A DNA stretch of 64,000 nucleotides, from assembly GCA_050084515.1 (NCBI GenBank), contig CM114271.1, forward strand, positions 13,330,001 to 13,394,000. Reading direction: 5' to 3'. Positions 1 to 62,073 of this stretch are shown piece by piece. The DNA is from Blasia pusilla (lineage: Eukaryota). Below the pieces are notes generated by a model. The model made no database searches. It was not told the origin of the DNA and saw nothing but the letters and a program-made list of their open reading frames with translations. Positions within the stretch are counted from its first letter, which is position 1. Every line of letters starts with the position of its first letter. Position numbers and translations under genes: made by a program.

Positions 1-359
1 GTAGTAATTGTGTCAAGCGTCGTTTCTCACCTCCCGTAAGCTTGGGCCCAAGTAATGGCTCCCAAGTCTCCTCCTTGGCACACTAGAGGGAGAGGCGATG
101 CCATTGGTCACACTCATAACCCCCTCACAAGATGGTACACCCTTAGCTACACCATCATCTCGAGCAAATAACTCCTCCACTAGCATGAGCAACCAACTCC
201 ACATGCCCACCATTACATCCCATCTACTCCAAGGATGCAAAATACTACTCTCCTCGCTCCCGGCCCGATGCCTCTACCGTCCGGTAGCCATCGAGCTCAT
301 TACAAGGGTGGAAGACCCACAAACATAGTCCGAAGTCGATTTGCTCGCCATACCAAGAC

Positions 360-1330
360 TCAAAATCCAAGTTAAACAATTCAGGTCCATGGCCTGACCC
401 AACACATGACGTCGTGAAGCCTCGAAATAGAAGCAACCATTTGTCACACCAAAGAGCAAATCCCATCGCACGCATTCTCTCATCAGCGTTAGGCTCCACC
501 AATGCCGCACATGAGAATCCCATACAAGCCCGGACCACCTTCCTGTAGGCATGTGACGAGGAAAACTCACAAATGTGGGTAGTGCCATCCTAGGTGGCCC
601 ACACGGTTCACCACCGCCATGGGTGACCGATCAATAACCCTCACCACTTGGGAAAGTTGCCCAAGATTCAAGATACTATCCCTTTGTAAAAGGCGAGGAT
701 CCCTGCCGACCGCATCATATGCTCGACGAGAACCTCCCTAGGCAATAAGTTTGTCCACCACAAGCGTGGGCGATGTGCACGTGAGCCAACTGGCTGCATC
801 CAACAACACCGCTGGTCCAATCCAAGAGCGCACCTCATGAACACTCGCCATCATCCGGGTCCGAGTGTCACCAACAATGGAACATTCTCGAATGTAAGCT
901 AGAGCACGTGCTCGATGAACTGAAGATGTCGTAACACCCGTAACATCTCCCAAAACAATCGAGACCTAGGTCATGTAATCCCTCACCCGACCAAAGACGT
1001 GTATGACACGACATGGCCATCCAGCAATCACCAAATCCACAGGACCAATTCTCTCAAGGTCCTGCGCCCAACAATGCAATGTGTGATGGTAAAGCACGCT
1101 GGTACCCACGAATAGCGATGGCGGAAACAACTCGGGATATCTCCGCATCAATCGACCAATATGTCGGGATGAGACTCTCTCGGGCCGTCTCATCTCGCTC
1201 CTCATACACGATATCTCCAAGACAGAATACCTGCAACACTGCTGACCAAACCAAGTGCTAATCCCACCAAAGAGATCTAACACACAAATGCCCTCCCCGG
1301 ATCTTTGCCATACAATGGGTGTAGTATCCA
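360..1330 (-). pseudogene. C5-cytosine DNA methyltransferase domain within E1 pol (frameshifted)
   Basis: Motifs occur in canonical order: I VLDLFGGI (~1260-1285), IV DLVIAGWPC (~1010-1040), VI YI.ENV (~880-900), VIII GSRAHRPRLWWTN (~750-790), IX EPNADERMRAMGF (~460-500), X RRHVLGQAMDL (~380-415). Confidence 0.9.
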
Positions 1331-1649
1331 AAGGGGATAACCTAAGCGGGCGAGGAAGTAGGAGTCCGCCGTGGGGCCTCCTCTTCCTTGTGAGGTATAA
1401 CGACCTCACACCAAGCCTCTGCACTAGGCAATCGGCCTCTGCCGTAGTGCACCGCCTGAACTCCAAAGTGGCACATCCAACGATGAGGATGCCTTTGCTG
1501 CAAAAATAGGGACCTCCTCTTCCTCCTCATGCGCAGGAGAATCCATAGAAACATTACCCTCCAAAAGTCTCTGGCCAAGTGACTACTCCACTAAAACCGA
1601 CCCACAGATGCTAACACTTTGTTGGGAAGACCCTCCTAGTCAAGCCCGA

Positions 1650-4100
1650 GAAATAAATCTCACAGAACTTGGCTCATACGTCCATCCCGGATCGCCAACC
1701 TGGTCTATAAGACGCTGTCTCGACCCAGTAATCCATCTGAAAACCCATCGGGTACAATCATCGCTCCTCCAACTAGTACATCATACGACTCGGTGATGTG
1801 ACTACCATGCAGAATACTCCCAACCGGGAGCTATCGGTCGCATGATCTGGTCTCAACTGTCAGAAAACTTCTCCCGTGTCATGAATTGAGACCTATCATT
1901 TGCTCCTCCAAGTGATGTTTGAATCTGGAATGGGCAAGGCTCAAGCTCGACCTCCGAATACCCAAACCAATACATGCCGCCTTTCCCAACATCAAAGGTG
2001 GGCACCGAGTCTAACAAGACTCTATCTGGTCTATACACTGTCTGAGGACTCACCAATCGGAAGATCCCACTCCGGTTGTCCAACATACATACACCAGGTG
2101 TAAGCCTCTCACGATCAATGGTGGCCGGGCCGAAATGCATCCATCTTCGCCATTTCGCCGCTAAAGTAGCACTGGTACTCAATGCTACTCCTGACATAGA
2201 GGGTCGCTCCACCGCAACACCCTCATCCACCTCAGCACGTGTAGCAGTAACACCCCCACGTTCACACAACGTGGCCGCTAATTGAAATACAGGAGCTAAG
2301 TCAACTCCTAAAGCCATCAGCTCGTGGCCGAAAACAATGGGGATCCCAACACTGAAGTTGCCATCCGCAATACTGCATTGGATGTTGCATCCGTGTCTAC
2401 TACACGCGATGTAGATGCCTCATTCCCCACTGTCGGCTCAATAGGCTGCGTAGGAACCATGGATGGAGTCCTAAGCACCTCAGACAACAAGAATGACTGG
2501 GGAAGCCTAGCCTGCCTCCCAGCCTCACCCCTCTGTGGGTCCAACTCCACAGTAGCACCACGTGGCTCTGACGCTCGAGTGGCTCCTCTCGAAACTGCAG
2601 CTGATGCCTCAACTTTGTCTTTGCACTCGCCATATAAGAGAGATCATCCCTCCATAAGAGGTGGAAGCCCCTGCTCCCGAACTGATCTATCTTTGGATAC
2701 CGACCATAGTAGCCAACTCTGCTCCAATGCTCAATCTGGGCGACCATAGCGACTCTGTCAGAGTGGTAGGGGTAGCCACCGTAGGCTCTCCAACCACCTG
2801 GTCCACCTCTACCACCCCTACCACCTCTACCACCTCGGCCTCTTGAGCTACTTCACCACGGCCACGGCCTGATCTCAACTCGGATGGAGATCAAAGCAAC
2901 GCTCTCGAGGATGACCTAGTCTCCATAATGATCACACTGAGTTGGGACCGATCGAGGCCCATCCTCCAAAGTCCGTCTCCCATCCTCTTGGGGACAAAAC
3001 TTCCTAACATGATCACCTCCACATGTCCAACATGATCGATCCTTCTTTGCGGGGCAGCAAATGAAGGCAATGGTCTTGCACAAATGTCCCTCTAGGACTT
3101 GACGAGGTCGCGTGTACCCCACGACTCCCACTACTACTACCACCACCACCACTACTACGATCTTTGTGAGGTGGGCGGTGAACACGGTGAAGTAGTAGTT
3201 GTATCCCCCTCTTGAATGCGGATGTCACCACTCTCTCCTTCACCATGTTAAGCTCAATCTTCTCGAGATAGAGCAAACACATGGGTCAATGTGGGTGAAT
3301 CATCACTCATAAGAGTAGCATCACGCACCCTACTGGCGCAAATCTCGTCCAAGATCCCATACCTAAAAGCGGACTGCGCCGATCCTCAATCACACCCTGG
3401 TAATGAAATCAGCGCCGATACGCGTGTATGCCTCACGAAGACTCTCACCAGTCTTTCGCTCAAAGTCTGAAGATTCCTCAACTTCTCCGTCTTCACTCCT
3501 TAATAGTTCTTCTTCAACCTCTTGAAGAACTCGCAACAAGGGCTAAACGATGGTGGGGCACTAGTACCTCCACTAGTACCCCCACTAGTACCTCCACGGT
3601 ACCCCCACTCCGGCTCGACTCGTACCACTCAGCGTCGGCCGGGGTGGCATAGTAGGAGCACTACTACCAATACCACCATGGGTGATAGACACATAGCCTG
3701 GAGACCAATATTGTCTCCATGCCTCAATCTCAACAACATGGTCCTTCCTAAACTCATGGTAATCATCCATGGGTGGTCCTTCCAAGTCTTTGAAACAACC
3801 CCTTCCAAGCCAAGAAGGGTGTAAACAACGTGCGTTCGCAACATCTGCATATCACACCACGTATCAAACTCCTGCATGAAGTCCTCCAACTCAATGGTAC
3901 CCACTTTGCACCGAGTATCGTCGTGGGCCCTTCATGGCCCCATATCCACCGTCCATGTCCCAAATCAATGGAGCGCAACACTCGATAACAACGTAGAAGA
4001 CTCGGTGTTTGGAACACCTCGTCCTCCTCTTCATCAACCGTCGGAAGTGGAAAAGGTAGCCGATACCTAAATCCACTCCGTGTGAAACCACCATTGTCCC
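1650..4100 (-). pseudogene. E1 gag (capsid-like region plus CCHC knuckles) and aspartic protease, degenerate
   Basis: Peptides ELEDFMQEFDTWCD, EGPPMDDYHEF, CWTCGGDH and CPFQIQTSLGG align with E3 peptides (ELHDFIVGIRSWCD, EGAPMDDYHEF, CPFRIQTSLGG). Confidence 0.8.
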
Positions 4101-5676
4101 GCACCACGGTCCCCAACCAGACCACCCGACTGACTCCGTGATGACCAACGCCGATGCCGCACCACCACCAAATTACCAAGTGACGTCGATGTCGCTATAC
4201 TATTCTAACTCTACTAGCTATGGGTGTAGGCAACCTAACTTGTCATCACCACAAGAAGTCTCCCACAATCTACTCGTCATCCCTCCGGCCTCACTACCGG
4301 TAGCACATGGGAGTAACACTACTCGGGAAATCAGCGTCAACCCTAACAATGGCGCGCAAGCAAGAAGCACGATGGAGGGGATCCAAACACAGGAAATCCA
4401 ACAACAACCCTCCAATCGCAAATGGAAATCAAGGTAACACAATCCACCAAACTTGGTGCCCTCGAATCCACAAAACCCACCACACAATTCTAACGCAATA
4501 GCTACTCCGCCGAATGGTCGATGACGTGCTAGTTTAACGCGCAAAGACTGAAAAATATCACTGTATGGAGAGGCTACACCGTACTATGCGCTAGAGGTAC
4601 ATCAACCAGAAACCTGAGATGCATAAAGCGCCTAACACATCTCCGAACAAAGACCAAATGAGCTGTGATGCAGACACTTTGGCATAGTTAAGAACTCGGC
4701 GATTAAGCGTCCTCCAGGCAGAATAGCCCAAAGATGGGTGACCAGTTATGCAAAACTCAAATCCCAAATCCTGCAAAAATTGCCTCACGCCCAAGCAAGC
4801 AAGCTTGCTTGCTTGCTCCTTGCTCCTTACTCCGCCTCTCACGCCCACTCGCCCCGAGCTACCACGAGTTGCCTCGAAGCCTCGAAGCCTCGAAGCCTCG
4901 AAACGCCGAGAAATGCTCGAGACATGCCCCTATCGCCCCGTTCGCCATGGAGAGAGGTCCAACCAGGGCGCCCCCAACGGGATAGGCGTCTCCAAAAATG
5001 AACGAGTCACCAACCAACCAGCCCCTCCGATCCGATGTCCACCATAGCCAGACCTTGAGCTAGTCCGCGAAATTTCGATCAGAAATTACTTCACAAATGT
5101 GTGACCGAAATCAAATCTGTTTCGATCAGAATTTAATTGACCACCATAGCTATCTCCCCACAAAAACTCAGCTACAACCGAGCTCCGTACTCCGAGCTAA
5201 AAATCAGACAAACTTGCTGTCCATACACCTCTAGAACCGCAAAACCGACAAGCGCTCCGCCAAGTTTCATGCACGAGAAAATCCATAACGCTCCACGCAC
5301 TCGAGCAGATAGCTTCACATGAGATCACAATACAAGTAGCAATAGGAACCTCTCACCCGATCTGGATGAACTTCAACAGAGCTTCCGACTCCAAGCTCTC
5401 CACATCGTAAAACCGTCGAACACGACGAATCTTCAATGCTTGATAACTTCCAACTCCTTGACAAAATCCGGCGATCTACTGTAGCGTTGGAAAGCTCTCA
5501 GCAAGGCGCTTCTTTTCCAACCAACACAAGACCAGATTCACACCTCCAACATAGGCCACAAGCCACGAACATCCACGGCCGAGTACACATCGCCCTAACA
5601 GATCCTCTTGATCTACAATCGAAGCTACCATCGATCTCACGTCGGTTCTTTGAGTGAAATCCGTGAAAGACCTCTT

Positions 5677-6000
5677 TGTCATAAAACACGTTTACAATCA
5701 CATACAATCGAGCCAAACCCACTCCACGATGGGAGAATCTAGGTCGAAGCTTATGGAAACACCATAGCCAAGAGCTCTACTCACTACCAAGGCTAACTCC
5801 CAACGCAAAGGCTCAACTCAAAGAATGATCGTTCTTTGAGGGCAAGCCACCTTATATCCTCCAACCTAAGAGCGGGCCCCTCTTTGGGAAAGTCACCCCA
5901 AGTGAGTAACCCCAACCCTATGTATGGAACCGCATCTCTACCAAGCCACTACGGTCCTACATAAGGAATGGCCTCTACCAGCACACCATACTCTACGACA
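5677..6000 (-). repeat. Putative 5' terminal repeat/LTR of E1 (family III)
   Basis: Bounded by imperfect inverted ends TGTCATA...TACGACA. The minus strand has a TATA-like GATATAAGG and the GAGTGGGTTTGG motif shared with family II repeats. The partner repeat is outside the window. Confidence 0.55.
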
Positions 6001-6018
6001 TAATCCGTATGGTCATGA

Positions 6019-6150
6019 CATGGTTCTACTCGTGGTGCAACCACTATGCTAGTCTATGATGGGTGTTCGAGAGGGTGGCATATGGCATGTCTGACGCCAT
6101 CTCTCACTAGGATTCCTCAGGGACGATGGATGTGCCCCAAATGTACATAA
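6019..6150 (+). pseudogene. PHD zinc-finger remnant at the 3' end of a retroelement ORF
   Basis: Translates as HGSTRGATTMLV(Y)DGCSRGWHMACLTPSLTRIPQGRWMCPKCT*, the C-terminal part of the C4HC3 PHD consensus. One Cys appears mutated (TGT>TAT). It lies just upstream of the family II 3' terminal repeats. Confidence 0.85.
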
Positions 6151-6340
6151 AGTAGGTACTAAGTTGTTCTAGATTCTGACTTGTGTCTATGACATGGATG
6201 ACGAAAAGGCGACTAACGATGGGGCCATATGAGCACCCCGCTTTTTTGCTCTTAGCGTCCAAGAGATGTATGTCATGGTAGGTAGGGATAGATGGTCATC
6301 TGGAGTTAGAGGGACTTGACCACCAACTAGGGGGATGGTA

Positions 6341-7141
<801 letters not shown>

Positions 7142-16557: not shown

Positions 16558-17165
16558 GGGAGGACAAGGGGATGGAGCAATATGGGGGGATTTAGGGTGG
16601 GGAGGTGTTTAGTGGGGAGTTCATTCATGAGTATCCTTAAAGCCAGTAAATGTCATGTGTCAAAGGTAATATTTCATTTGGTTTCCCATCGGATCACCTT
16701 GGGGCAGCCAAGTTATGATGTTTTAGGATATTGGGATGTCCTTATGAGTACATGGGAGACACAACCGCTCTATGTCTTATGGAAATTGCAGTTCCAACAA
16801 TTGATTCTATTAATTCCCTTACGAGGCTATATCCTCACTAGGTTGTTGACTTTCCAAATTTCGTATATGATTTCCTTCATTAGGTGCCTCTTTGCCTCAA
16901 CTTGTTCCTTTGTGCATGGATGCTCTAAGGATTTCCAGGACTTGCTTCCATAGGTTTGTCAAGCATGGTGCATGAACACCTTCTTGATTACTTTTTTTTC
17001 CCTAGGATTCCTAGATCCAGCGACTTCTTTAATTTTATCCAAGTTGTGTTTTAATTAGCTGTTGGGAAGCTTCTAGTGATAGTGGCCCAGCTTTTTGGGG
17101 GCGGGGCGACTCTTGAGGATGTCCAAGTTATATGGCTCGTAAGACTAAGTTGTGACCAAATCACT

Positions 17166-20100
17166 TGTCACATCTTAGTTTGCCGATAGGTAGAGTTCTA
17201 CCATGTCAATGGCATAGCGAGTCAATGGACTGTTGGGTGTAGCTTAGTCTTGAGATGTTAGTTGAAGTTGACGTTAGGTCCGTTATGTCGGGAACGTTGT
17301 TTCAAGCGATTTTCCTCCTTTTTTTTTTTTTTGCTGGTGATCTGTTGAGCAAATCAAGGGCCAACTAATAACCTGTGCACCCAAGTTACCGATGGGTTGG
17401 ATAATTTTAGGGGAAGAGCCCTTCCCCTAAAATTGGCTCTTCCCAAGGCTATATAAGGGAGAGAGTTCCTTCCTGTACCGACATATGTTACCCAGGAGGG
17501 ACCACGGTTGAATTTTTGGATGTGTGGTGGGCCACATAGGCAGAAGGACTACCCAGAGCATGGTAGAGGGCCTAGGGTGCCTCTGAGTGTTCAAGAGCCA
17601 CCTAAGATGGCCCCACCACAGTTGCAATATGATCATTGTTACCGATATGGTCATACTAGGGTTAGGTGTTTTGATCTTTGTCAAGAGCTACGTCCAGAGG
17701 AAGGCGGAGGGCCTAGGGTGAGAGAGTTGGTGGAGATCGAGGAGTCGATGATTGTGGTGATAGATTTCTACCACCAGTCATAGGAGATGGAGGACGTGCA
17801 CCTGATGCAGCGCTCCTCACTCGTATCGATCAGTTGTAGCACAAGATTTTTGCCATGACAATGATGCAGCTAGAGACACGCAACAAGCCGAGAGTGGCTA
17901 GTGTGGCTCTAGCCTCCACGACGTATCAGGATACGGAGGAAGATTATACGGGCTTGAGGTTTATGTGCAGTGTGGCTCACGGAGAGGTTGTTGCAATAGT
18001 GCCTCAGGGTGCGACGAGAGTGACAGAGCCAATGAGAGAAGGTGTTGAGATTGACCCACTGGAGGGAACCAATGGGCGACAAGCCAAAGTTTATGAGTCA
18101 TTTAAGTTGTTAGAGGCACTTCACACGCCGTCAATGGTGCCTCGATGTTCAGTAATGTCCACAGGTGAAGCAAGTGTGTCGACGTCATGAGGAGTTGGTG
18201 AGATGACTCCTATGCTGGCTTGGGGAGAGCCAGTGTCGACCATGTTGTTGGAGGTGGCCACTAGGGTGAGCCAGGCTCTGTTGTTTTCTGCCATGGAGTT
18301 GGCGATGATGGGAGTTGGACGAGCGGAGCTATTATGACTGGCCGCCATGTTGTGTGAGCATGGAGAGATGATTGCCTCTAGTTTGGAGGTGGTTGTTGAG
18401 GAGGTGGTGGACATACCCTCGCAGCACGTGCTCAAGACGTCCTCCACTAAGTCATGGTATGCTGCGACAGGGAAGTTGGTAGATATGCCAACTAGGCTAA
18501 CAATAGAGCGAGCCATGATCACGCCAAGTGTAGTGTTGTTGGATAACTAAGCTGAAGTGTTTTTCTTGGTTAGTCCCACAAGTATGGTGTACCATCCGTA
18601 GCGGATCCTACTTGATTCACGAGAGCAACCCTTTTATTGGGGAAGGCGAAGTGCTTGGTGTTGGGATTACGAAAAGGTGACATTGAGTGTTATCCCTTTC
18701 AGATACATACCTCTATTAGGGATGTATCATCCACGTAGTACATGACTCAACATAAGTTATTGGTTGGACTCTAGCCAAAGCATGAGTTGGATAGTGCAAT
18801 GATGCGCACTCGGGCGATTAAGTCAACAGTAGAGTCATATGATTTGTTGGTAGGGAGTACGGTGTTGTACCCCCTTGGTTTCATTCTGGATTTTTGGGAG
18901 GAGACAGTTTCTTATCAGCCAAGGTGGCAATTAGGTGATAGATGGATGAGCCATCTACCGATGCAATTTGCACGGTGCACTGGTGGTCGATCACGTGAGG
19001 ATACAATGACCACGTTAGCAGCATTCATAGGTGGTGTTAGCTGAATAGGAGAGTTTTTGGAGAGGAGCACACATGTGGAGGAAATTTCCGTAGCGGATAG
19101 TCCCATGGAGAGACATGTCTGGGTGGGTGTCTCTTCTCATGGTGTGGAGATTTTCTTACCATTGTTGTGTAAGAGCGAGGAGTAAAGACGAGCTTGTGAG
19201 GCAAGCATGGAGCCATGCTGGTGTCTTGGAGCATACAAAGTCAGGTGACGATCGTGCTCTTAAATTGGAGACTTCATATCTTCGGGTACCACATGTGTTA
19301 TGTGGTAGTGTTTGGAGCAGGGTACAAAAGTGTTAGATCTCTTCGAAGGAATCAACACATATTTATTTGCAGTGATACGGGGATCGGATGACACCACCAA
19401 TGGTGCTAGATGTGTATAGAATAGTAGATTATGTTAGGTAGATATGTGTGTGCTATCTGGAGTTAGGGGAGAAATTGTGGGGTCTCGGTGTATATGCATG
19501 AGTTTATTTGGTTTATGGATGGATCGACCGATATGTTGGAAAGATCAGTGTTGTGTGGTGTGTAGATGCGACCAACCACGTGGATTGTGTAGCGATGTGT
19601 TATCATGTGTATACGCATGACAATTGTTACATCTTAGTTTACCGTCAAGTAGAGTTCTACCGCATCGATAGCTTAGCGAGTCAACGGACTATTTGGTGTA
19701 GTTTTGTCTTGAGATGTTATTTGAAGTTTACGTTAGGTCCGTTGTGTTGGGAACGTTGTTTCAGGAAATTTCCCTATTTTTGGTCTTTGTCAATCGGTGA
19801 CCTGTTGAGCAACTCAGGACTAGTCGGTAACCTATGCACGTACGTTATTGATGGGTTGACTATTTCTAGGGGAAGAAACTTTTGGCTCTTCCCAAGGCTA
19901 TATAAGGGAGAAATATGGCTTTTCCAAGATATCTTTCTAATATTGGGTCGTTGGATCATCTCTCTTGCTTGTGTGTGAGGTAGCAACTAGGGTGCTAGCA
20001 TCCAGATTCCCTCATAGCGGAGGGTGGACGAGGGTTGATATGCTGATGTAGATTCAAGAGTGGAGTTTTAGACCGGATGAGCCAATTTTTACTCTAATTT

Positions 20101-20239
20101 TTGTTGTGGGGTCTTGGTGTATATGCGTGTGTTCATTTCGTTTATGGATGGATCAACCTGTGTGTTGGGAAGATTGGTGTTGTGTTGTGTAGATGTGACC
20201 AGCGATGTGGATTGTGTAGCAATGTGTATACGCACGACA
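17166..20239 (+). mobile_element. E2: internally deleted DNMT-retrotransposon (family I) with both termini. Order: partial A1, gag knuckles, protease, DNMT motif I, B1 (19475-19622), AT, A2 (19625-20103), B2 (20104-20239)
   Basis: Termini are TGTCACATC and GCACGACA, flanked by the 4-bp TSD CACT (17162-17165 and 20240-20243). Peptides: WMCGGPHRQKD, HCYRYGHTRVRC, RILLDSREQP, ESYDLLVGSTVLYPLGF, LDLFEGINT. Confidence 0.92.
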
Positions 20240-20386
20240 CACTCTTAGACTTTGTATTAAAATCACAAATACAAAAAAATTTCCACGCAATCTTTCAAAA
20301 AGCATTGACGTAACCTAAACATGGAGAAAACTCTAAATATGAGAATCCTAAAACTGCCATGGTTCTCAAACTATATGCCTCTATTG

Positions 20387-20910
20387 CATCACATCTTTTG
20401 TAGCGGATCGACAAGTGTCTTCACCGTGTCTTCGAGGAGGTTGGAGGACAACCTGAGGAGGTTAAGGATGACATGTTTAGGACTAGCTAGGATAACTTGA
20501 TAGAACAAGTTTGCCCTTATTTTAGACTTATTTGGAGTAATATTAAGTAACTTACTATTTGGGTAAGTTCTTATTGTGAACAAAGTTGTCTTTTCATTTC
20601 GAAAAGTGATCATTGGTCCACTATTGCAGTCAAGAGACAACTTAGCCATCATTGGTCCACTATTGCAATCAAGAGACAACTTAGCCATCATTGGTCCACT
20701 ATTGCAATCAAGAGACAACTTAGCCAAGGAAGTGACTTGTGCGCATAGGTCACCAAGTAGAGAGTTTGGGGAGAGGGAAAGGATATACCAAAAAAAGAAA
20801 GAGTGATCTAGATCATTCTTTCTTTGACAAACCTTTTTTCCTAAGGTGGCAAAGCTATGATTCTCCTTGTCACGTGAATTCTCAATAGAAAAGTGGGTTT
20901 GGCTTAAAGA
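20387..20910 (+). repeat. Family II terminal-repeat (A) fragment containing three 39-bp tandem repeats (20609-20725)
   Basis: Aligns with the A segments at 6451 and 35611. ATCATTGGTCCACTATTGCA.TCAAGAGACAACTTAGCC occurs three times. Confidence 0.8.
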
Positions 20911-30993: not shown

Positions 30994-32264
30994 TCTATAT
31001 AGTGGGCGACCCCACAACTACAGCAACATTAAGACGAATTTCAATGGAAGAGAAAAAAACATTTATTATATTATATCTTATAATTTACCTAATTAATATT
31101 TAATGGGTGATTTTAAATTAAAAATTTTTAAAAATGAATTAAAATTTTCTTAAATCATATTTAATGAAAAAAGAAAATGAATTTTAATGGAAAAGAAGAA
31201 ATGTTTGAATTTGAACGGAAATATTTAAAATATTGGGATATCATTTAAATTTTATTTGATAAGTGGAGTTATTTAGAAGAGAAATTTGATTATTATTTTC
31301 AGATTTAAGAAAGAAATTAAAATTTTGAAACATTTTTTTTATTTTTAAATAACCAAATTATTGATATGTCACGTCTTTTAGGATATATTGGAAAAATTTA
31401 GTATAGAATCTTCATGTGTAGCGGAAGACACCCTTAGGAGGTCAATTATGATTTGTTGAGGCCACGAATATGAGAGAGCAGATTTCCCTTTCGTTTCGCC
31501 TCATTTGGAATCATATATAAAAACTTACTATTTTGGTAAGTTCCTATTTTGAATATATTTAACTTTCCATTTTGGGAATTGGTCTTTGATCCGCTACATC
31601 ATATCAAGAGCCAAGGACATGACCTGCGAACATAGGTTATCGTGGAGAGATTTTGGGAGAGAGGAGGGGGTATACCTCCAAGAGAGAGAACTTGAGAGTT
31701 CTCTCTCAAGTTCTCTCAAGAACTTCTTGAACCTCTTGGCATGAGGCGGAAGAGTTATGGTCTTCTTTGCCTTTTATATGAGAGAGAGAGATTTGTGTGC
31801 ACCATAGAGAGATTGTGTGAGATCTACTTGATTTTATTGGAGATATTTTGGTACCTCTCGTCTCGATGTTTGGATGTCATGAGTTAACATGGGATCGTGA
31901 GTGTTTGTGTGTGTTCGGTGACAGCGATGTATGTTGTGTGGCGATGTGTATATGCACGGCGGATATTTCAAAAGGAAAATGAATCTGAATGGAAAAGGGA
32001 AATTGATTAATTAATTAAAATTAACTAAGAATATAATTAGTCAATATTATTTTGGTGGGAAAAATAGAATGGGAAGAATAGGTATTGTTCAAAATTTCAT
32101 GGAGGAGTGAAATTAATTAGGGAAGTTGAGTTTTATTTAAAAGTTAAATTCTTTTATTCTTGTAAGATTTAAAATTATATGAATTATAACAAATTTTGAA
32201 ATAAAAAATATTTCTGAATTATTAAAAAGTCATTTTTGTACGAAAGCACAAGCATGCTAACTAG
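30994..32264 (+). mobile_element. AT-rich non-autonomous Helitron, interrupted by a solo retroelement repeat
   Basis: Starts A|TCTATATAG and ends with a weak hairpin then GCATGCTAACTAG|T. The same 3' end occurs at 47004 and 53265. Confidence 0.65.
31367..31961 (+). mobile_element. Solo A+B terminal repeat of family II DNMT-retrotransposon
   Basis: Runs TGTCACGTCT...GCACGGCG (degenerate GCACGACA) with the 4-bp TSD GATA. The related Helitron copy at ~46672-46710 shows an empty site with a single GATA. Confidence 0.9.
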
Positions 32265-34766: not shown

Positions 34767-35111
34767 GGTCACATCTTAGTTTGCTGACAAGTAGGGTTCT
34801 ACCACGTTGATTGCATAGAGGGAGAGAAATTTTCTTGGGTGTAACTTCGTCCTGAGACGCCAGATGAGTTTGGAGACACATCCATTGCGTCAGGAATATT
34901 ATTTTTCACAATTTCCCTTTTTTTCTTTGTCAACCAAGTGATTCGTTGACGGAGTCAACGGTCACCTGGTAACCTATTCACGCAAGTTACTGTTTGGAGG
35001 TTGTTTTGGGGGGAAGAACCTTTTGGCTCTTCCCAAGACTATAAGAGAGGGAGAGATGGCTTTCCCAAGCCATCTTTCTCATATTGGGCCTCAAGAGCAC
35101 CTCTCTTGCTT
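34767..35111 (+). repeat. Family I terminal-repeat (A) fragment
   Basis: GTCACATCTTAGTTTG...TTGGCTCTTCCCAAG.CTATA...CTCTCTTGCTT aligns with 17166 and 19625. Confidence 0.85.
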
Positions 35112-37850
35112 TTGGTATAACTAAAAGCAAGATTGCTACGGCTAGCAGAAGTAACCATGGACAAAGTTGGGAAGATGGAGGGAGAGAGAGCATGCCTTCA
35201 ATAAGGAGGAGCCATTATGGCTTGAGGAGGTTGAGTGTGGAGTTCGGGGCAAGGTCCGGGTTTTTTTTTCTCGGGAACCATTGAGTTCTCTTCATTTGTT
35301 TTTCCTAGGACCTGATTTTTTAAAATTATAACCGAAAATACTAGAAGATAGGTTTTAAAGTAGGCCGTAAATTTCTAATAATTAAAAATTTTTATAGTGG
35401 TTTTCTGAATATTTTATTATTTACACGACACATTTCCTATTCATTTGAAAGAAGCCTAGCCAATGTTTGGCCGATTCTAAATTTAACCAACTAAAAAAAT
35501 TTCCCGCCTGCTTTGGATAAATTGGATTTATGATATCTTTTCATGACCCTTTGAGAATCATTCAACTTCTCTTGCAAAGTTACAAGACCACACTACCTCT
35601 TTGAAAATCTTGTCCCGTCTTTTAGGATAGATCGGTGAGATCAAGTAGAGCGCCTTTGTGAGTAGTGGAGTACAGGCTCAGTAGGTTGAGGATGACTTGT
35701 TGAGGCCCCGGGAAACCCAAGAGAGAGCAGACTTCCCCTTGGTTTCGGCTCATTTAGAGCCATATTGAGGAACTTACTAATTTAGGTAAGTACCATTTTG
35801 AATATATGATTGACTTTCTATTTTTGGTATGTGTCCTTGACCTCCTACATCAGGTCAAGAGCCAAGGAGGTGACTTGGGAGCATAGGTTACCATGGAGAG
35901 AGCTTGGGAGAGGGGAGGGATATACCTCAAGGAGAGAGAGCTTGAGAGCTCATTCTCTCTTTGTTGAACCTCTTGGTATGAGGCGGCGGAGGAGCTATGG
36001 TCTTGCTTGCCTTCTGTGTGTAGCCCAAGCCTCTCATTAGGAGAGTGGGTTTGGTTTGACATTGAGAGAGACATGTGAGAGTGCACACATGTGAGAACTA
36101 TGGTGTTGTGAGAGAGATTAGATCATATTTTACAAAGAGAGAATGAGTGAGTGAGAGAACTTCGTGGGGGAGCTCCCTGGTTGCTCGATGTTTGGTGCAG
36201 CTTGGGGGACCATGTTCCCCGCTTCATGGCTCATGGGAGTGCTCACCAAAGCAAGAGCCGTGCCAGTTTGCTATTTTGATTTGCTGATTTTTTGTATAGG
36301 AGATTGGCACTCGGATGCGCTGCTCAATTTTCGATAGGAATTGAGTATGGGGGCGGATTTCTCCATGCCGATGCTCTCGAGAGCACCATGTAGCTTGCTG
36401 ATTTGTGTTCTCACGGGTTATACAATTTTTTTGGGAGAAATCAGTGCGGAAGTGCTGCCAAATTTTGTGTAGGAGAAAGAGACATTGGGCTTTACGACAC
36501 TCCCTGTCAGTTTTTACTGGAATGTTCGATTCAAAATATATTTTGATGTTGTTGTAGATCGTGAAGCTGTGCAGGCTATGCAAAAAATGGTGCACAATTT
36601 GAATTATGAGCAAAAAGTTATGTTCAATCTTGCAAAATTGCCATTGCAAGCCAATTTTAGGGTTAAATTGTTCAAATCCTAAATCAGCTGTCGCGTCGGC
36701 GGTGGCTGTTGCTGTCATATTCACCGTCAACGGTCAACAATCACCGCTAATGATCCGCCGTCACCATCAATGGTCAACCGTCACCGTCAATGGTCCACCG
36801 ACCACCGTCCGCCACTGCCACCGCCTAGTGTTGCTCAGAGCCGCGTTCGGTTGTTGTCCACCCTTTGGTTGCCATTATCGCCATTACGGAGTGGAGGGTC
36901 TTCCACGACCACCGTTGATTCTCTGACTTGCTCCGCCACCACGTACTTTGGTTTGGCCGCCACTGTCATCGCAATTTTGTCATCAACCAGTGATGGCAGG
37001 TGACCTCGGGTTATGGTGTTTGAGTTTTCATTTCATGCTGCTATGTTGTGATTCGTAGTCGCTCGATGACGATCGAGTACCGTGCCGTGATACCGTAGCC
37101 GCAACGCGCCGCCGATTGCCACGCCGTGTCGCTCATGGCCGCACTGCACCACACCGTCTTGATCGCACAGCCGCTCCTTCACTAAGGAGCAGAGCGTATG
37201 AATTTTTGATTGAGGAGGGTATGCCGCCGAGTGCCGCACTCCATTCCCAAGTGTCCTGCCGTTTGTAGCTATTCCGTGCTGCCAATGCCGCACTGGACCG
37301 CTGGACTTGCACCGCACATCGAGGAGGTTTGACCAGCGTCAGTACGAGAGGAGTACGACTTGCTCATTGGAGGAGTTGTCTTCACGACTGAGTTGGGATC
37401 GAGATTTGCAGGTACCGAGGAGCGACATCGACATTATTGTGAGGTTATCCATTCTGGTCTCTTACCCTGCACGTGTGAGGGATTTTTGGGTATTGGGAAG
37501 TTATTTGGGATATTGGGTTTTGTGCTTATGCTGAGAGCATCAATGATGTATAGGTTTAGGGGTCATAGACCTATGTGGGATGTCCACAGTTGAGGATGGT
37601 TTGTCCATGAGATGATAGATCAATTGATTTGCAGCACCACGGATCATGTATGGGTTTAGGGGACATAGACCTGTGTGGGATGTCTAGAGTTGAGGATGGT
37701 TTGTGGATGAGACGACAGATCAGTTGATTTGCCGCACAACACACGTCTCAATGAGAGAGTGTAGATTGAGTGCCGCATGTTTAGTTTTATTGATTGAGGG
37801 ATTACTTGCGAGATTGAGAGTGATCGTGTGAGAGGGGCACGAGGGCCATC

Positions 37851-39830
37851 ATGGCATCCTTTCGGGATTTTGAGAGGCGAGGCAGTGGACCTGAGAGTAG
37901 CTCTAGAGGGTTTACCCGTAGTGGTGCGAGGTTTCGAGGGTCTCCACGTGAGAGACCACCTCGATCTCCTTCTATATCGTCTTCTCACAAGGGGGAGCAT
38001 GTAGAGGAGTGTGTTAGTGATCCACCGTATACATTGAGTGGTCCTACCAGTTGGGCGTACGAGATGGACGACCGGGATAGAGAACCGCGTCAGATTTTCG
38101 GGTGTTGTAGGCATTATAGAACTACATGACTTCATTGTGGGGATTAGGAGTTGGTGTGACTCACAGCAGGCTAGGAACTCTAGAGAGTTCAACCCATTTA
38201 CAACATGGAACGATATGTTCCAGCATTTAGAGGGGGCGCCCATGGACGATTACCATGAGTTCTCCCATAGATATGCCCAGAAGATTGACGCATGGCGACT
38301 CTATTATGATTCACACTATGTGTCATGGACGGAGCCGTTCCTAAATGAGGAGGAGGAGTCAGGAGAGGCTACTTCCTCTTCCACTAGTGATATTTTAGGA
38401 GGGGTCACTCGCATTGGAGTAGTTGCAACATCTAGTCGGGTTCGTCCCAGTTTCAACCCCGTGGTTGAGTTCTTTGTTGAGTTAAGGGCGAGCTACCAGG
38501 GGGTACGGACGAAGAATTTGCGGAGCATCCACAACTTCCAGAGGCGCCCGGGTGAGAGTTTGCGTGAGGCTTACACTCGCTTGCGCCGGTTGATCAACGT
38601 TACTCAAGGGGTGACAGAGGCTCAAGCTATCCAGTCATGGTATGCGATGTTGGATCGGACCATGCGGACATGAGTGCGGGAGGGCGTGATTCTTAAGAAC
38701 ACCTCCCCTATGTTGAGAGATGTTTTTAGGACCGCCAAGAATATTGAGCGCAACATGGCGGAGGAGAGAGTAGCCACCATGGGTTTTGGGCGAGAGTAGT
38801 CACGATTGTCTGTACCACCTGTGCAGCAACGTGGACTCCGCGATAGGTTGACTGTGGCACCACGAGCTCAAGGAGGATACCGGGATGTTGTGCCACAGAG
38901 ACCTGCGACTTCATATGCGGCTCAGTAGCAGCCACCTACAATTATTTGTTGGTTATGTGGTGGAGCCCATCATCAGCGCGATTGCAATCGTCAAGGTCAT
39001 GGACGTGTGCCTCAACATGGTGGAGGAGATGGTCTTACACCAGGAGGTTATCAATGTGACTATTGTTAGAGATATGGTCACACACGCGCTAGGTGTTTCA
39101 ATTTACATCCTGAGTTACGTCCGGATCGAGGGCGAGAGAGGGCACCAGAGTGAGTAGCCGGTCCGTGTGGGCCTAGAGATTGTGCACCAGGTGGTCTTGT
39201 TGGGGGACGAGGAGTTGGAGTTGCCTGTCAGGGTGGTGGAGCTGCCCATGGAGGAGGTAGAGTCCCACCACCTAGACGCATTGAGGGAGACGCCGGGCGT
39301 GAGGCTGGGATGGCTGCTCAGATACAACAACTACAGGAGGAGGTTGCCGCTTTGGCATTGAGGTTACCCGATGCCGGATCCGTGGCATTGACATCATATG
39401 GAGCAGCCAGAGATATGGAGGATCCTGATAGAGCTTTTAGTCCGCATCGCGTCTTGTTGGATTCAGGAGCGCAACCCTTGATGTTGGGGAAAGCGTCATT
39501 CAGAGGATTGGGCTTGACGAGAGCCGATGTGGAGCGTTGTCCATTCCGGATACAGACATCCTTGGGTGGAGCAATTACCACACAGTATATCACCTGACAG
39601 GATGTCGTGGTGAGGATTCGCCCGGGACATCCTACAGATGAGTCCGTGGTGTGAGCCAAGGGGATAGTGACTGATGTAGAGTCCTACGACATCTTGGTTG
39701 GTGGAGCAGTGTTATACTCGATGGGATTTTCCCTGGATTACTGGGAGGAGTCAGCGTCCTACAGACCAGGATGGAAGTCACGTGATGGGCGCCTTAGCTC
39801 ATTACCTGTTCGATTCACAGGTGCAATGAT
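37851..39830 (+). pseudogene. E3 gag (two CCHC knuckles) and aspartic protease
   Basis: FQRRPGESLREAYTRLRRLI (retrotransposon-gag-like), ICWLCGGAHHQRDC, CDYC*RYGHTRARC, RVLLDSGAQPLMLG, ESYDILVGG. In-frame stops are present. Confidence 0.85.
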
Positions 39831-40119
39831 TGAGTGACGGCGAGGAGAGATGACGACCTTAGTAGCATTTAGCAGTGCCATCACTTGGCCTAGTGATTTG
39901 ATTGAGGGACATGTCCATACAGAGGATACTCCCGTTCCTGAAATTTCTATGCAGAGGAGTGTCATGGTAGCTGCATCAGTATGTGGAGGCGAGGTGCCAC
40001 TTTGGGGCTCAACTGAGGAGCTTCGACCCTTAGCCACTGAGCATGTGCAGACCATGTGGAGCGAGATATTTGCACTAGAGTGTGACGGGTTAGAGGAACC
40101 CAAGGTAGGCAAGAGTGCT

Positions 40120-40770
40120 GCTATGACCCCTTTGGACACCATCCTGATTGTGTGGTGCATCCTAGAGGAGGGTATTCGGGTGTTGGATCTCTTTGGAGGG
40201 ATCAACACTAGGTTAGTTGCTATTTTGCACGCTGGAGTGCGCGTGCAGGAGTACGTGTATGTGGAGATTGATGATGTTGCGAGGTGCACTTCACTTCATC
40301 ATGTGACGCATTTATACCTCCGTTTTCCCGAATTTTTGTCTGCGTCCGCCATTCAGGGTTACCAGAGTTCCCTACCGAGGGACATTTCATTGTTGGGGGC
40401 GCAGGACTTAGAGCGGGTATGGACCATAGACTTGGTCATTGCTGGTTGACTGTGTCAGTGCCAATCGAGTGTTGGACAAGGTAGCGGGTTAGCTGACACT
40501 CGATCTAGGTTATTTTGGGAGATAATGCGGATCTTGCGACATTTACAGGAGCATCAGCCTCGTTCTCCAGCATCATTTTGGAGAATGTGTCAATTTTGGG
40601 CAATTCGAGGTCTCGAGTGGTGACGAGTGCACATCAGGTGCGGGCATGGATAGGCTTGGCAATGTTGTTAGATGCGGCGAGTGTAGGTTCTAGATCACAC
40701 CGCCCCCATCTTTGGTGGACCAACTTGGTACCACATGAGGTGTTGCGGAGGGCTTGTGCAGGGTCACGTC
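40120..40770 (+). pseudogene. E3 C5-cytosine DNA methyltransferase domain (inactivated, truncated after motif VIII)
   Basis: IRVLDLFGGI (~40174-40203), YVYVEID, DLVIAG*LCQ (equivalent to GWPCQ, ~40430-40458), ILENV (~40575), GSRSHRPHLWWTN (~40686). Confidence 0.9.
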
Positions 40771-43689: not shown

Positions 43690-44365
43690 CACCTCGCTAT
43701 TGCTCGGGAGAGTGGATTCCATGTACAGAGAGAGAGGCACTATTCTATGCGGGATTCCCTTGTCCGTGATGATCTCTACATGACGAGGGAGGCTGAGGTG
43801 GTGGTAGCGGATGTTGTAGTGACGGATCCTACGCGGGAGGCGGTGCGAGCCCAAGTGGTAGCACAAGGGAGATTGCTACAAGGAGCGGCGGCGGCGGCGG
43901 TCAAGAAGACCCACATCTGCAGTCGACTTCATGACGGACATCGATTTATCTCCCTAGCCATTGAGATGTACGGGGCGATGGGAGAGAGGTTTGACTCGTT
44001 CCTTACGGATTGCGCCCATCATCTCCAGTCGGGAAATGGGTTGTCCTTAGCCACTGCGATACTTTATTGTAGGCAACAAGTTTCCATAGCTTTGCAGCGC
44101 GCCCGAGAAAATGGGCTTCTGCGGCGGGCTCAGGTGGTTGGAGACGCCAATGCTAGAGGCCCATTTAGTAGTAGTCATAGTTTTGTAGGTGTTGCTCATA
44201 TTGTCTCTGCTGTTGGTGATTCTGGTCGTTAGGGGGGAAGGCCCCCTTCTTTCTGCTTGGGGCGGATTCTGGCCTCTTGAGGTCTTCCTTTTTGGCTCTC
44301 TTTGCCCCTTCATTTGTATCGTGATGGGTTCCCCATCCTTTTTTATACATATTTTATATCTTCTT
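43690..44365 (+). mobile_element. 5'-truncated non-LTR retrotransposon with a restriction-like endonuclease (CRE/RLE-type) C-terminus
   Basis: AIARESGFHVQRE, RDDL, VADVVVTDP, KKTH, FISLAIEMYGAMG and YCRQQVSIALQR fit a PD-(D/E)xK-type RLE tail. 3' UTR hairpin GATGGGTTCCCCATC. Homologous to 48398-49005. Confidence 0.8.
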
Positions 44366-48397: not shown

Positions 48398-49005
48398 AAA
48401 GAAAGATGCACTTCGATAAAAACGAGTGATGGAAAACCCATCGGAAGTACAAAAGAGGGGGACTCAAAGAGTCAAAACCTGAAGGCCACAACACGACCAG
48501 AAAAGGAAGAAGGGGCATTCCCCCTAACGACGAAACTCACCAACAGCGAGAGACAATATCAGCAACAACAAGAGAGCTATGACTACTACTAAGTGGGCCT
48601 CTAGCGCCGGCGTCTCCCACGACTGAGCCGCGCCAAAATCCCATTGGCCTGGGCACGTTTTGCAACGCTATGGAGACCCGCGCCTACAATCTGAGAATCG
48701 CAGTAGCTAAGGACAACCCATTTCTCGAGTGGAGATGATGGCGCGATCCGTAAGGAACGCAGTCGAACCTCTCCCCATAGCCCCATACATCTCTATGGCA
48801 GGGGATGAAGATGTGTCCCTCGTGTAGTCGACTGTAGATATGTGTCTTCTTCGCCGCCGCCGCCGCTCCTTGTAGCATTCGCCCTTGGGCCACCACTTGG
48901 GCTCGCACTGCCTCCCGCGTAGGATCTGTGACTACCACGTCCGCCACAACCACCTCAGCCTCACGTGTCATGTAGAGATCGGCACGAATGAGGGAATCCC
49001 GCAAG
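48398..49005 (-). mobile_element. 5'-truncated CRE/RLE-type non-LTR retrotransposon
   Basis: RDSLIRADLYMTREAEVVVADVVVTDP...KKTHIY. The 11-bp TSD GATGCCCTAAA is at 48387-48397 and 49006-49016. The 3' end is T-rich. Confidence 0.88.
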
Positions 49006-61457: not shown

Positions 61458-62073
61458 TGTCGTGCGCATACATATCGCTACACAACATACATTGCTGGTC
61501 ACATCTATACCACACAACACCGATCTTCCCCACACACGGGTCGATCCACACATGTACAAAATCAACTCATACATATACATGGAGATCACACAACAAAAAT
61601 AAAGAGTAGTAAAAATGGCACACCCAGTCTAAAACTCCACTCCTCAATCTACATCGGCATATCGAGCCTCGTCCATCCTGTGCTATCAAGGAATCCGGAT
61701 GCTAGCACCCTAGTCCTATCTCACACACATACAAGAGAGGTGCTCCAACGGCCCAACATGAGAAAGATGGCTTAGGAAAGCCACCTTCCTCTCTTATATA
61801 GGGTTGGGAAGAGCCAAAAGGCTCTTCCCCTAAAAATAGCCCTCCCTTGGTAAACTGCAAGACACAGTTACAGGGGCGTGATGATTTGGTCAACAAGTCA
61901 CCCGGTTGTAAAAGGCCTTAACATGAAAGTTGTCAGAAACAACGTTCCTGACACAATGGACCTATCCTCAACCTCATCCGACACAGTGGGACAAAGTTAC
62001 ACTCAAGATAGTCCGCTGGCTCCAATGCCCTATCCACGATAGATCTTGGCCTATCGGCTACTCAGATGTGACA
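61458..62073 (-). mobile_element. Solo A+B terminal repeat of family I DNMT-retrotransposon
   Basis: Reverse-complement homolog of 19625-20239 (TGTCACATC...GCGCACGACA), with the 4-bp TSD AGGT (61454-61457 and 62074-62077). Confidence 0.92.

Follow-up and report, generated by a model that had tools for sequence, protein, structure and literature searches.

A split PHD finger in Blasia pusilla is a remnant of an integrase-PHD fusion from a Ty3/Gypsy family with a Dnmt3-like domain

Within a 64,000-nucleotide stretch of the Blasia pusilla genome, referred to here as the window (contig CM114271.1, positions 13,330,001 to 13,394,000 of the forward strand), a short PHD-like peptide is encoded next to a repeat of a retroelement family that also carries a predicted DNA methyltransferase (DNMT). 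This raises the question of whether the peptide is a genuine chromatin reader of a retroelement and whether such a reader could guide integration, DNA methylation or both. Translation of positions 6019-6150 of the plus strand gives 43 residues followed by a stop, and the peptide matches the PHD profile PF00628 over profile positions 10-47 (35.9 bits, cut-off 24, E-value 7.4e-09). The preliminary description, made from the letters of the window and naming this profile as a check, had placed a PHD-type peptide with a stop about 190 bp ahead of the B1 repeat; both the translation and the profile bear this out, B matches starting at 6341. The window peptide is a split remnant of a real integrase-PHD fusion, encoded by a Ty3/Gypsy element with a Dnmt3-like domain. 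The features of the locus are collected in Table 1.

Table 1. Coordinates of features of the retroelement family in the window.
Feature	Position in window	Strand	Remarks
Nested sister-subfamily element, 9,282 bp	1..6020	-	continues to C1:13326739
Frameshifted Dnmt3-like relic of the nested copy	340..1334	-	words resembling motifs I, IV, VI and VIII visible
Right part of PHD (after first Cys pair) with Pol stop codon	6021..6150	+	dead remnant
TGGT, 4-bp target-site duplication	6021..6024	+	other copy C1:13326735-13326738
Purine run just 5' of B1	6329..6335	+	candidate polypurine tract (inferred)
B1 repeat	6338..6448	+	terminates in GACA; start approximate
B1/A2 junction, GACA-NN-TGTC	6445..6454	+	decayed form of a 10-bp palindrome
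A2 repeat and first bases of B2	6451..7140	+	GA/GT microsatellite within
TATA-like word and candidate self-priming site	6736; 6764-6778	+	both in A2
A-B repeat unit	31367..31987	+	same family as the PHD element; no internal region matched
5' half of another same-family copy	35611..40764	+	A1, gag, protease, DNMT relic; truncated within DNMT

The region encoding the peptide is repetitive, as shown by 40 of 40 scored matches in an assembly of 390 Mb in 26 contigs. All 39 matches outside the window begin at query base 72 or later, base 72 being window position 6021, and the DNA upstream of 6021 therefore belongs to another element. This second element, which lies on the minus strand from window position -3261 to 6020, was inserted directly after the first Cys pair of the PHD and splits its coding sequence. 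It ends in TGTC...GACA and is flanked on both sides by the TGGT target duplication. With 20 kb upstream of the window added, the plus-strand integrase (H2C2, core and C-terminal part) was located at C1:13325560-13326738 and resumes at window position 6021. A distance of 3.3 kb separates the integrase and the first Cys pair from the start of the window, and only the PHD portion following that pair lies inside the window. Two of the eight zinc ligand positions are substituted in this copy, which marks it as a dead remnant. The earlier statement that the PHD stands at the end of a retroelement ORF thus holds for other copies of the family, in which integrase and PHD are fused, but not for the window, where the upstream DNA is an inverted sister copy. 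The nested element contributes an A repeat, gag, protease, a Dnmt3-like domain and RT to the window, whereas its RH, integrase, own PHD and one B repeat lie outside. It is about 62-73% alike in DNA to the interrupted element, and its 3' end lacks A2-B2; such an A-internal-B copy would be either a one-LTR form or a B-by-B recombinant. A 508-aa open frame with leucine-rich repeats (L022:8145-9668, minus strand) was also observed, roughly 10 kb ahead of the window.

Elsewhere in the genome the fusion is complete. In open frames of 480 and 786 aa, a terminal PHD follows Integrase_H2C2 and rve, and the longer frame also encodes RNase H; this supplies the integrase-PHD fusion for which a check of full-length copies had been suggested. 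In an intact copy PF00628 matches with 41.9 bits over profile positions 1-47. When the 480-aa protein was compared with the genome, all 89 scored matches extended through the PHD in frame, eight of them without a stop. Further, 120 relatives were selected on RT/RH alone; 48 of these extend to the integrase C-terminus, and a PHD is present in 41 of the 48, 35 recognized by pattern and six with His as the last ligand. The other seven, six from Closterium and one unnamed, lack the domain, which indicates that it is dispensable in some lineages. Its presence across the family (89/89 matches, 41/48 relatives) and its retention in relatives named from Coleochaete, Klebsormidium and Pleodorina run against the two outcomes that the preliminary description had listed as refuting, namely absence from other members and the single capture of a host exon. 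Taken by itself, the short window piece is not connected to any ORF and might pass for such a captured exon or for a chance cysteine-rich match, but with a complete finger in open frame at 17 of the 19 other loci fetched and its conservation in chlorophyte and streptophyte algal relatives, this explanation is already refuted and its probability is close to negligible.

The DNMT belongs to the same element. At 18 sites selected on the PHD region or the integrase, irrespective of DNMT, a DNMT-like segment was found upstream in the same orientation in 16 cases (7/8 and 9/10), and one copy can be read from DNMT through PHD in a single frame of 1,390 codons, interrupted by three stops. The link between PHD and DNMT, previously described as indirect and mediated by shared terminal repeats, is therefore a direct one, both domains being part of one element and one reading frame. 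The methyltransferase domain is Dnmt3-like (PF00145, 43.9 bits), its best PDB matches are DNMT3A, and it shows the unpermuted motif order I, IV, VI, VIII and IX-X; sequence comparison shows these motifs to be conserved across species. The copy at 35611-40764, which is probably the element formerly designated E3 of family II, carries a DNMT relic together with the common A repeat, in line with the methyltransferase attributed to E3. As a separate observation, the strongest PF00145 matches in the assembly (L041-L044, on the minor contigs C20 and C23) align from the profile start and possibly represent bacterial or viral DNA in the assembly.

Taken together, the domain order is gag-protease-DNMT, an in-frame TAG, and RT-RH-integrase-PHD. 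The succession protease-RT-RH-integrase with H2C2 and DDE core is that of Ty3/Gypsy elements. No match to a chromodomain was obtained at the C-terminus in the integrase frames, which terminate at the PHD, and an identity as chromovirus was rejected on this basis. DIRS and Ngaro elements use a tyrosine recombinase instead of a DDE integrase and create no target duplication; the rve integrase and 4-bp duplications of the Blasia family led us to reject this identity as well.

Copies of the family are arranged as A1-internal-B1-A2-B2, with A of about 515 bp and B of about 125 bp, and A1 and A2 differ at 4-19 positions over 431-515 aligned bases. The elements have TG...CA ends, and an exact 4-bp target duplication was present in eight of ten copies, near-exact in one and absent in one; that of the nested copy is exact as well. 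The inserted ends do not consist of two full direct LTRs but of A1 and B1-A2-B2, respectively. The B/A junction GACA-NN-TGTC occurs 397 and 543 times exactly in the two subfamilies and not once in reversed controls, NN being mostly GC, AC, GT or AT, as expected from the decay of a palindrome. In six of nine copies, a stretch of 12-15 nt immediately following A1 can pair with a site located about 338 nt into A, compared with no more than 8 nt in any of 270 controls; a TATA-like word precedes this candidate self-priming site by about 28 nt. These features suggest a Tf1-like self-priming mechanism in which the true LTR would be B+A. The palindromic junction with its 2-bp spacer, together with the putative self-priming site, further suggests that integration may use an LTR circle that is opened within the LTR, at the B/A junction. 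Direct and inverted copies of other repeat families were seen at window positions 17162-20880, 34768-35114 and 61458-62006, as was a further repeat pair at 43748-44208 and 48549-49003.

Hundreds of copies are present in the genome, with representatives on all large contigs. Between A1 and A2, transitions affect 13 of 202 CG sites, 7 of 165 CHG sites and 41 of 2,054 CHH sites, and the denser CG and CHG transitions are consistent with host methylation. In three RNA runs labelled as the same species, 5,425-5,735 reads per run, drawn from 10-12 million records, aligned to one copy at 88% likeness or more. The reads fill all 30 bins, rise toward the 3' end and show a strand bias of about 10:1, the RNA presumably being sense if the usual library convention holds. 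Most reads are 90-95% alike, and the RNA thus derives from many copies.

The in-frame stop between DNMT and RT is a family-wide feature. TAG is found at this position in 16 of 17 aligned copies and, for the 695 genome sites, at 98 of the first 100 listed, with CAG at none, a count that refers to the main subfamily from which the flanks of the search pattern were derived. At 94 of the first 100 of these 695 sites, for example L051, the stop is part of the sequence TAG-CAA-CCA. This sequence fits CAR-YYA, the leaky-stop context of plant viruses; our literature search returned no paper pairing CARYYA, readthrough and a retrotransposon. TAG-CAA-CCA is a candidate read-through signal that would place DNMT with Gag. 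Gene models of Marchantia and Calypogeia that end after DNMT (P0230 and P0236) fit this layout. Given that the stop separates Gag-protease-DNMT from RT-RH-integrase-PHD throughout the family, the PHD likely travels with the integrase and not with DNMT. Gypsy polyproteins are moreover cleaved by their own protease, and stop and cleavage together suggest that DNMT acts separately from the PHD, its simplest target being the cDNA.

These observations bear on the possibility that the PHD guides the methyltransferase, in that a DNMT-integrase complex, or a read-through polyprotein left uncleaved, would methylate host DNA near H3K4me0 nucleosomes, much as the ADD domain guides animal DNMT3 to H3K4me0. 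Both domains do share one frame, and they are found in a single ORF in the relatives P0013, P0023, P0039, P0042 and P0103, as well as in P0035; the intact 2,811-aa ORF of P0103 comprises protease (a weak match), DNMT, RT, RH, integrase and PHD. In chlorophyte-type relatives, DNMT even lies between RH and integrase and adjoins the PHD-bearing part. In Blasia, however, the family-wide stop and about 1,000 residues of RT-RH-integrase stand between the two domains, and Closterium relatives such as P0250 keep DNMT in the absence of a PHD. We consider PHD-guided methylation, as put forward in the preliminary description, to be disfavoured by the stop and by polyprotein cleavage, and regard it as improbable. 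The position of DNMT between RNase H and integrase was noted in the chlorophyte-type proteins P0023, P0035, P0042 and P0017, which also carry a C-terminal tail of 300-360 residues after the PHD that resembles, by eye, a decayed amino-methyltransferase fold and has no Pfam match.

PHD fingers that read H3K4me3 possess an aromatic cage with a Trp two residues before the zinc His. This Trp is found in none of 35 pattern-matched relatives and in one of 46 PHD-selected relatives, and the Blasia copy has Gly at this position; the family was accordingly not assigned to the H3K4me3-reader class. Among solved structures, the best matches include the fingers of CHD4, PHF12, KDM5B/5A, KAT6A, DPF, PHF21A, ATXR5 and AIRE. 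Fingers of the CHD4, KDM5, KAT6A, DPF, PHF21A, ATXR5 and AIRE type mostly read unmethylated H3K4. Judged by its sequence likeness to these structures, the PHD is a candidate reader of H3K4me0. Asp after Cys3 is retained in 23 of 27 relatives that pass a strict homologue pattern, and a P-x-G-x-W stretch is retained as well, features that contact R2 and A1 of H3 in solved PHDs.

We propose, with a probability of roughly 0.6, that the split PHD ends the integrase of a high-copy Gypsy element and that in working copies it likely tethers the integration complex to H3 tails unmethylated at K4. Tethering to K4-unmethylated nucleosomes is favoured by the chromodomain-like position of the PHD at the integrase end, by the missing cage Trp and by the closest structures. 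PHD-guided integration, one of the possibilities raised in the preliminary description, would follow from it. Against it, old insertions showed no bias in their flanks in the small test described below, the PHD is missing from the Closterium relatives, and the family has no acidic residue just before Cys1. Pol would be made by stop read-through or as a separate ORF, and the protease would free integrase-PHD from DNMT. DNMT, produced at Gag levels, may methylate cDNA in the particle, while the PHD may keep insertions off H3K4me3 promoters. As two separate proteins, reader and writer would then work toward one common end, quiet insertion.

The alternative that the PHD is kept for a non-histone role, such as folding, nucleic acid binding or host-factor binding, and confers no chromatin preference seems unlikely. 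It would account for the occurrence of copies on all large contigs and for the null result of our flank test, in which repeats were found in 11 of 33 flanks and in 11 of 40 evenly spaced control stretches (p 0.62) and same-family sequences in 5/33 and 4/40 (p 0.72), in a small test with a narrow repeat library from which six of 39 loci were dropped because their B2 end was not found. Many H3K4me0 readers also use an acidic residue just before Cys1, and none is present there in the Blasia family. Against this stand the retained Asp and P-x-G-x-W stretch and the histone readers as nearest structures. By eye, one copy (G000 C1:38.72 Mb, with flanks L017/L039/L040) sits within what reads as the chromodomain of another Gypsy element. 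Reading of H3K4me2/3, and thus targeting of promoters as by PYGO-like PHDs in cnidarian retrotransposons, is very improbable: the cage Trp is absent in 35/35 and 45/46 relatives and many copies, including the nested one of the window, lie inside other repeats, even though PYGO-type PHD fusions are known (10.1101/2021.11.30.470311) and many UTRs are described among the insertions of Gypsy-7a_cRei (10.1101/2022.06.16.496473), as far as the accessible parts of both sources go.

Among named RT/RH relatives of the Blasia family, those of Calypogeia fissa (81-82%), Riccia sorocarpa and Marchantia polymorpha are the nearest; genome annotations of Marchantia, Calypogeia, Riccia and Sphagnum list close relatives as genes. 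The host genome also has 16 near-full-length matches to GRAS proteins, one of which was placed no more narrowly than in Streptophyta. Relatives of the DNMT include more than ten Marchantia models as well as proteins from Calypogeia, Sphagnum fallax and Closterium; in P0103 and P0250, DNMT lies inside the Pol ORF. The Marchantia polymorpha DNA-methylase gene models P0128, P0129 and P0229-P0244 (more than ten) are apparently relics of the element family. In an RT/RH tree of 40 rows, in which the labels 'noD' and 'noP' often denote partial proteins, the Blasia copies group with Calypogeia and Marchantia (99/94). Pleodorina and Tetrabaena fall in a separate clade (100/99) with DNMT between RH and integrase, and the whole group is supported at only 93/83. 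Klebsormidium nitens proteins, among them P0207 with a terminal PHD, are placed in one streptophyte group with the Blasia copies at 93/89, which is below the starred level.

The closest known system is KnitGypsy-Dnmt3 of K. nitens (de Mendoza et al. 2018, PMC5890265), for which the text consulted likewise describes Gypsy domains, a non-permuted Dnmt3-like domain and the same DIRS-like split repeats A1...B1-A2-B2. Its DNMT is part of the Pol ORF, whereas in the Blasia family a TAG separates DNMT from RT in the same frame, and its host is a charophyte alga and not a bryophyte with many hundreds of copies. PHD is mentioned nowhere in the searched main text and supplements of that paper; Fig. 4c may show one, since the K. 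nitens relative P0207 has it. In the same portions, DNMT-bearing Gypsy elements are described from this one charophyte alga, their role being left unresolved, and DNMT action on element cDNA is proposed. The name 'KnitGypsy' occurred in a single paper in the literature searched. A 2019 opinion piece states, in the part available, that land plants such as tracheophytes lack DNMT-bearing Gypsy elements (PMC6338049), and two later papers, as far as accessible, speak of 'streptophytes' and do not name land plants.

PHDs are common accessory domains of retrotransposons, and Gypsy-7a_cRei of Chlamydomonas is a Gypsy polyprotein with a PHD that has been proposed to limit harmful insertions and for which an intergenic bias is reported (10.1101/2022.06.16.496473, from its accessible text). 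REM1 of Chlamydomonas is grouped with it as a PHD-bearing Gypsy (as cited in 10.1101/2022.06.16.496473 and PMC6673714, likewise in part). Unlike the Blasia family, Gypsy-7a_cRei has no DNMT among the domains listed in the portion consulted. EpiLTRs of Cymbomonas and Euglena, described in 2026, similarly combine a chromatin reader with a cytosine methyltransferase in an LTR element, but they use a chromodomain as reader, have a DNMT whose sister group is DNMT4 and carry an adenine methyltransferase in addition; the available part of that work treats streptophyte Gypsy-DNMT3 as a separate acquisition (10.64898/2026.05.21.726589). Reader domains at the integrase end are also known from chromoviruses, CopiaMBD and Ginger1, with chromodomains reported to direct integration and one Ginger1 transposase bearing a C-terminal PHD; according to the sections seen, these differ in reader or element class, have ordinary ends and carry no DNMT (PMC6673714, PMC2836005, PMC6317226). 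Troyka shares the Gypsy domain order but was rejected as identity, being described, in the text at hand, as restricted to animals with CG...CG ends and 3-bp duplications (PMC12440569) versus TG...CA and 4 bp here. Selgy and Phygy were dismissed as PHD carriers, no PHD being mentioned for them in the literature searched, the REXdb paper included. The pairing of PHD and Dnmt3, the separating stop and liverwort or Sphagnum copies were not found in the literature text searched, of which figures and bioRxiv supplements may show a PHD or bryophyte copies. PHD-bearing Gypsy elements and LTR elements with reader plus DNMT are thus already published, and the Blasia family is a land-plant variant of the known DNMT-bearing Gypsy.

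A more far-reaching proposal, tentative and on balance doubtful, is that an old Gypsy lineage of green plants, with members in chlorophytes, charophytes, liverworts and peat moss, re-creates on two separate proteins what DNMT3 and its H3K4me0 reader do together. A leaky stop would yield Gag-level Dnmt3 that pre-methylates cDNA, the integrase PHD would direct insertion to H3K4-unmethylated chromatin, and the donor would be a self-primed LTR circle opened at the internal palindrome. If true, transcribed de novo methyltransferase genes borne by such elements would number in the hundreds in land plants, and Marchantia would have relatives of them. On the practical side, many Marchantia DNA-methylase gene models look like element relics. 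A high-copy DNMT-Gypsy family is transcribed in a land plant, and since genetics and chromatin maps exist for Marchantia, its relatives there make the roles of reader and writer testable.
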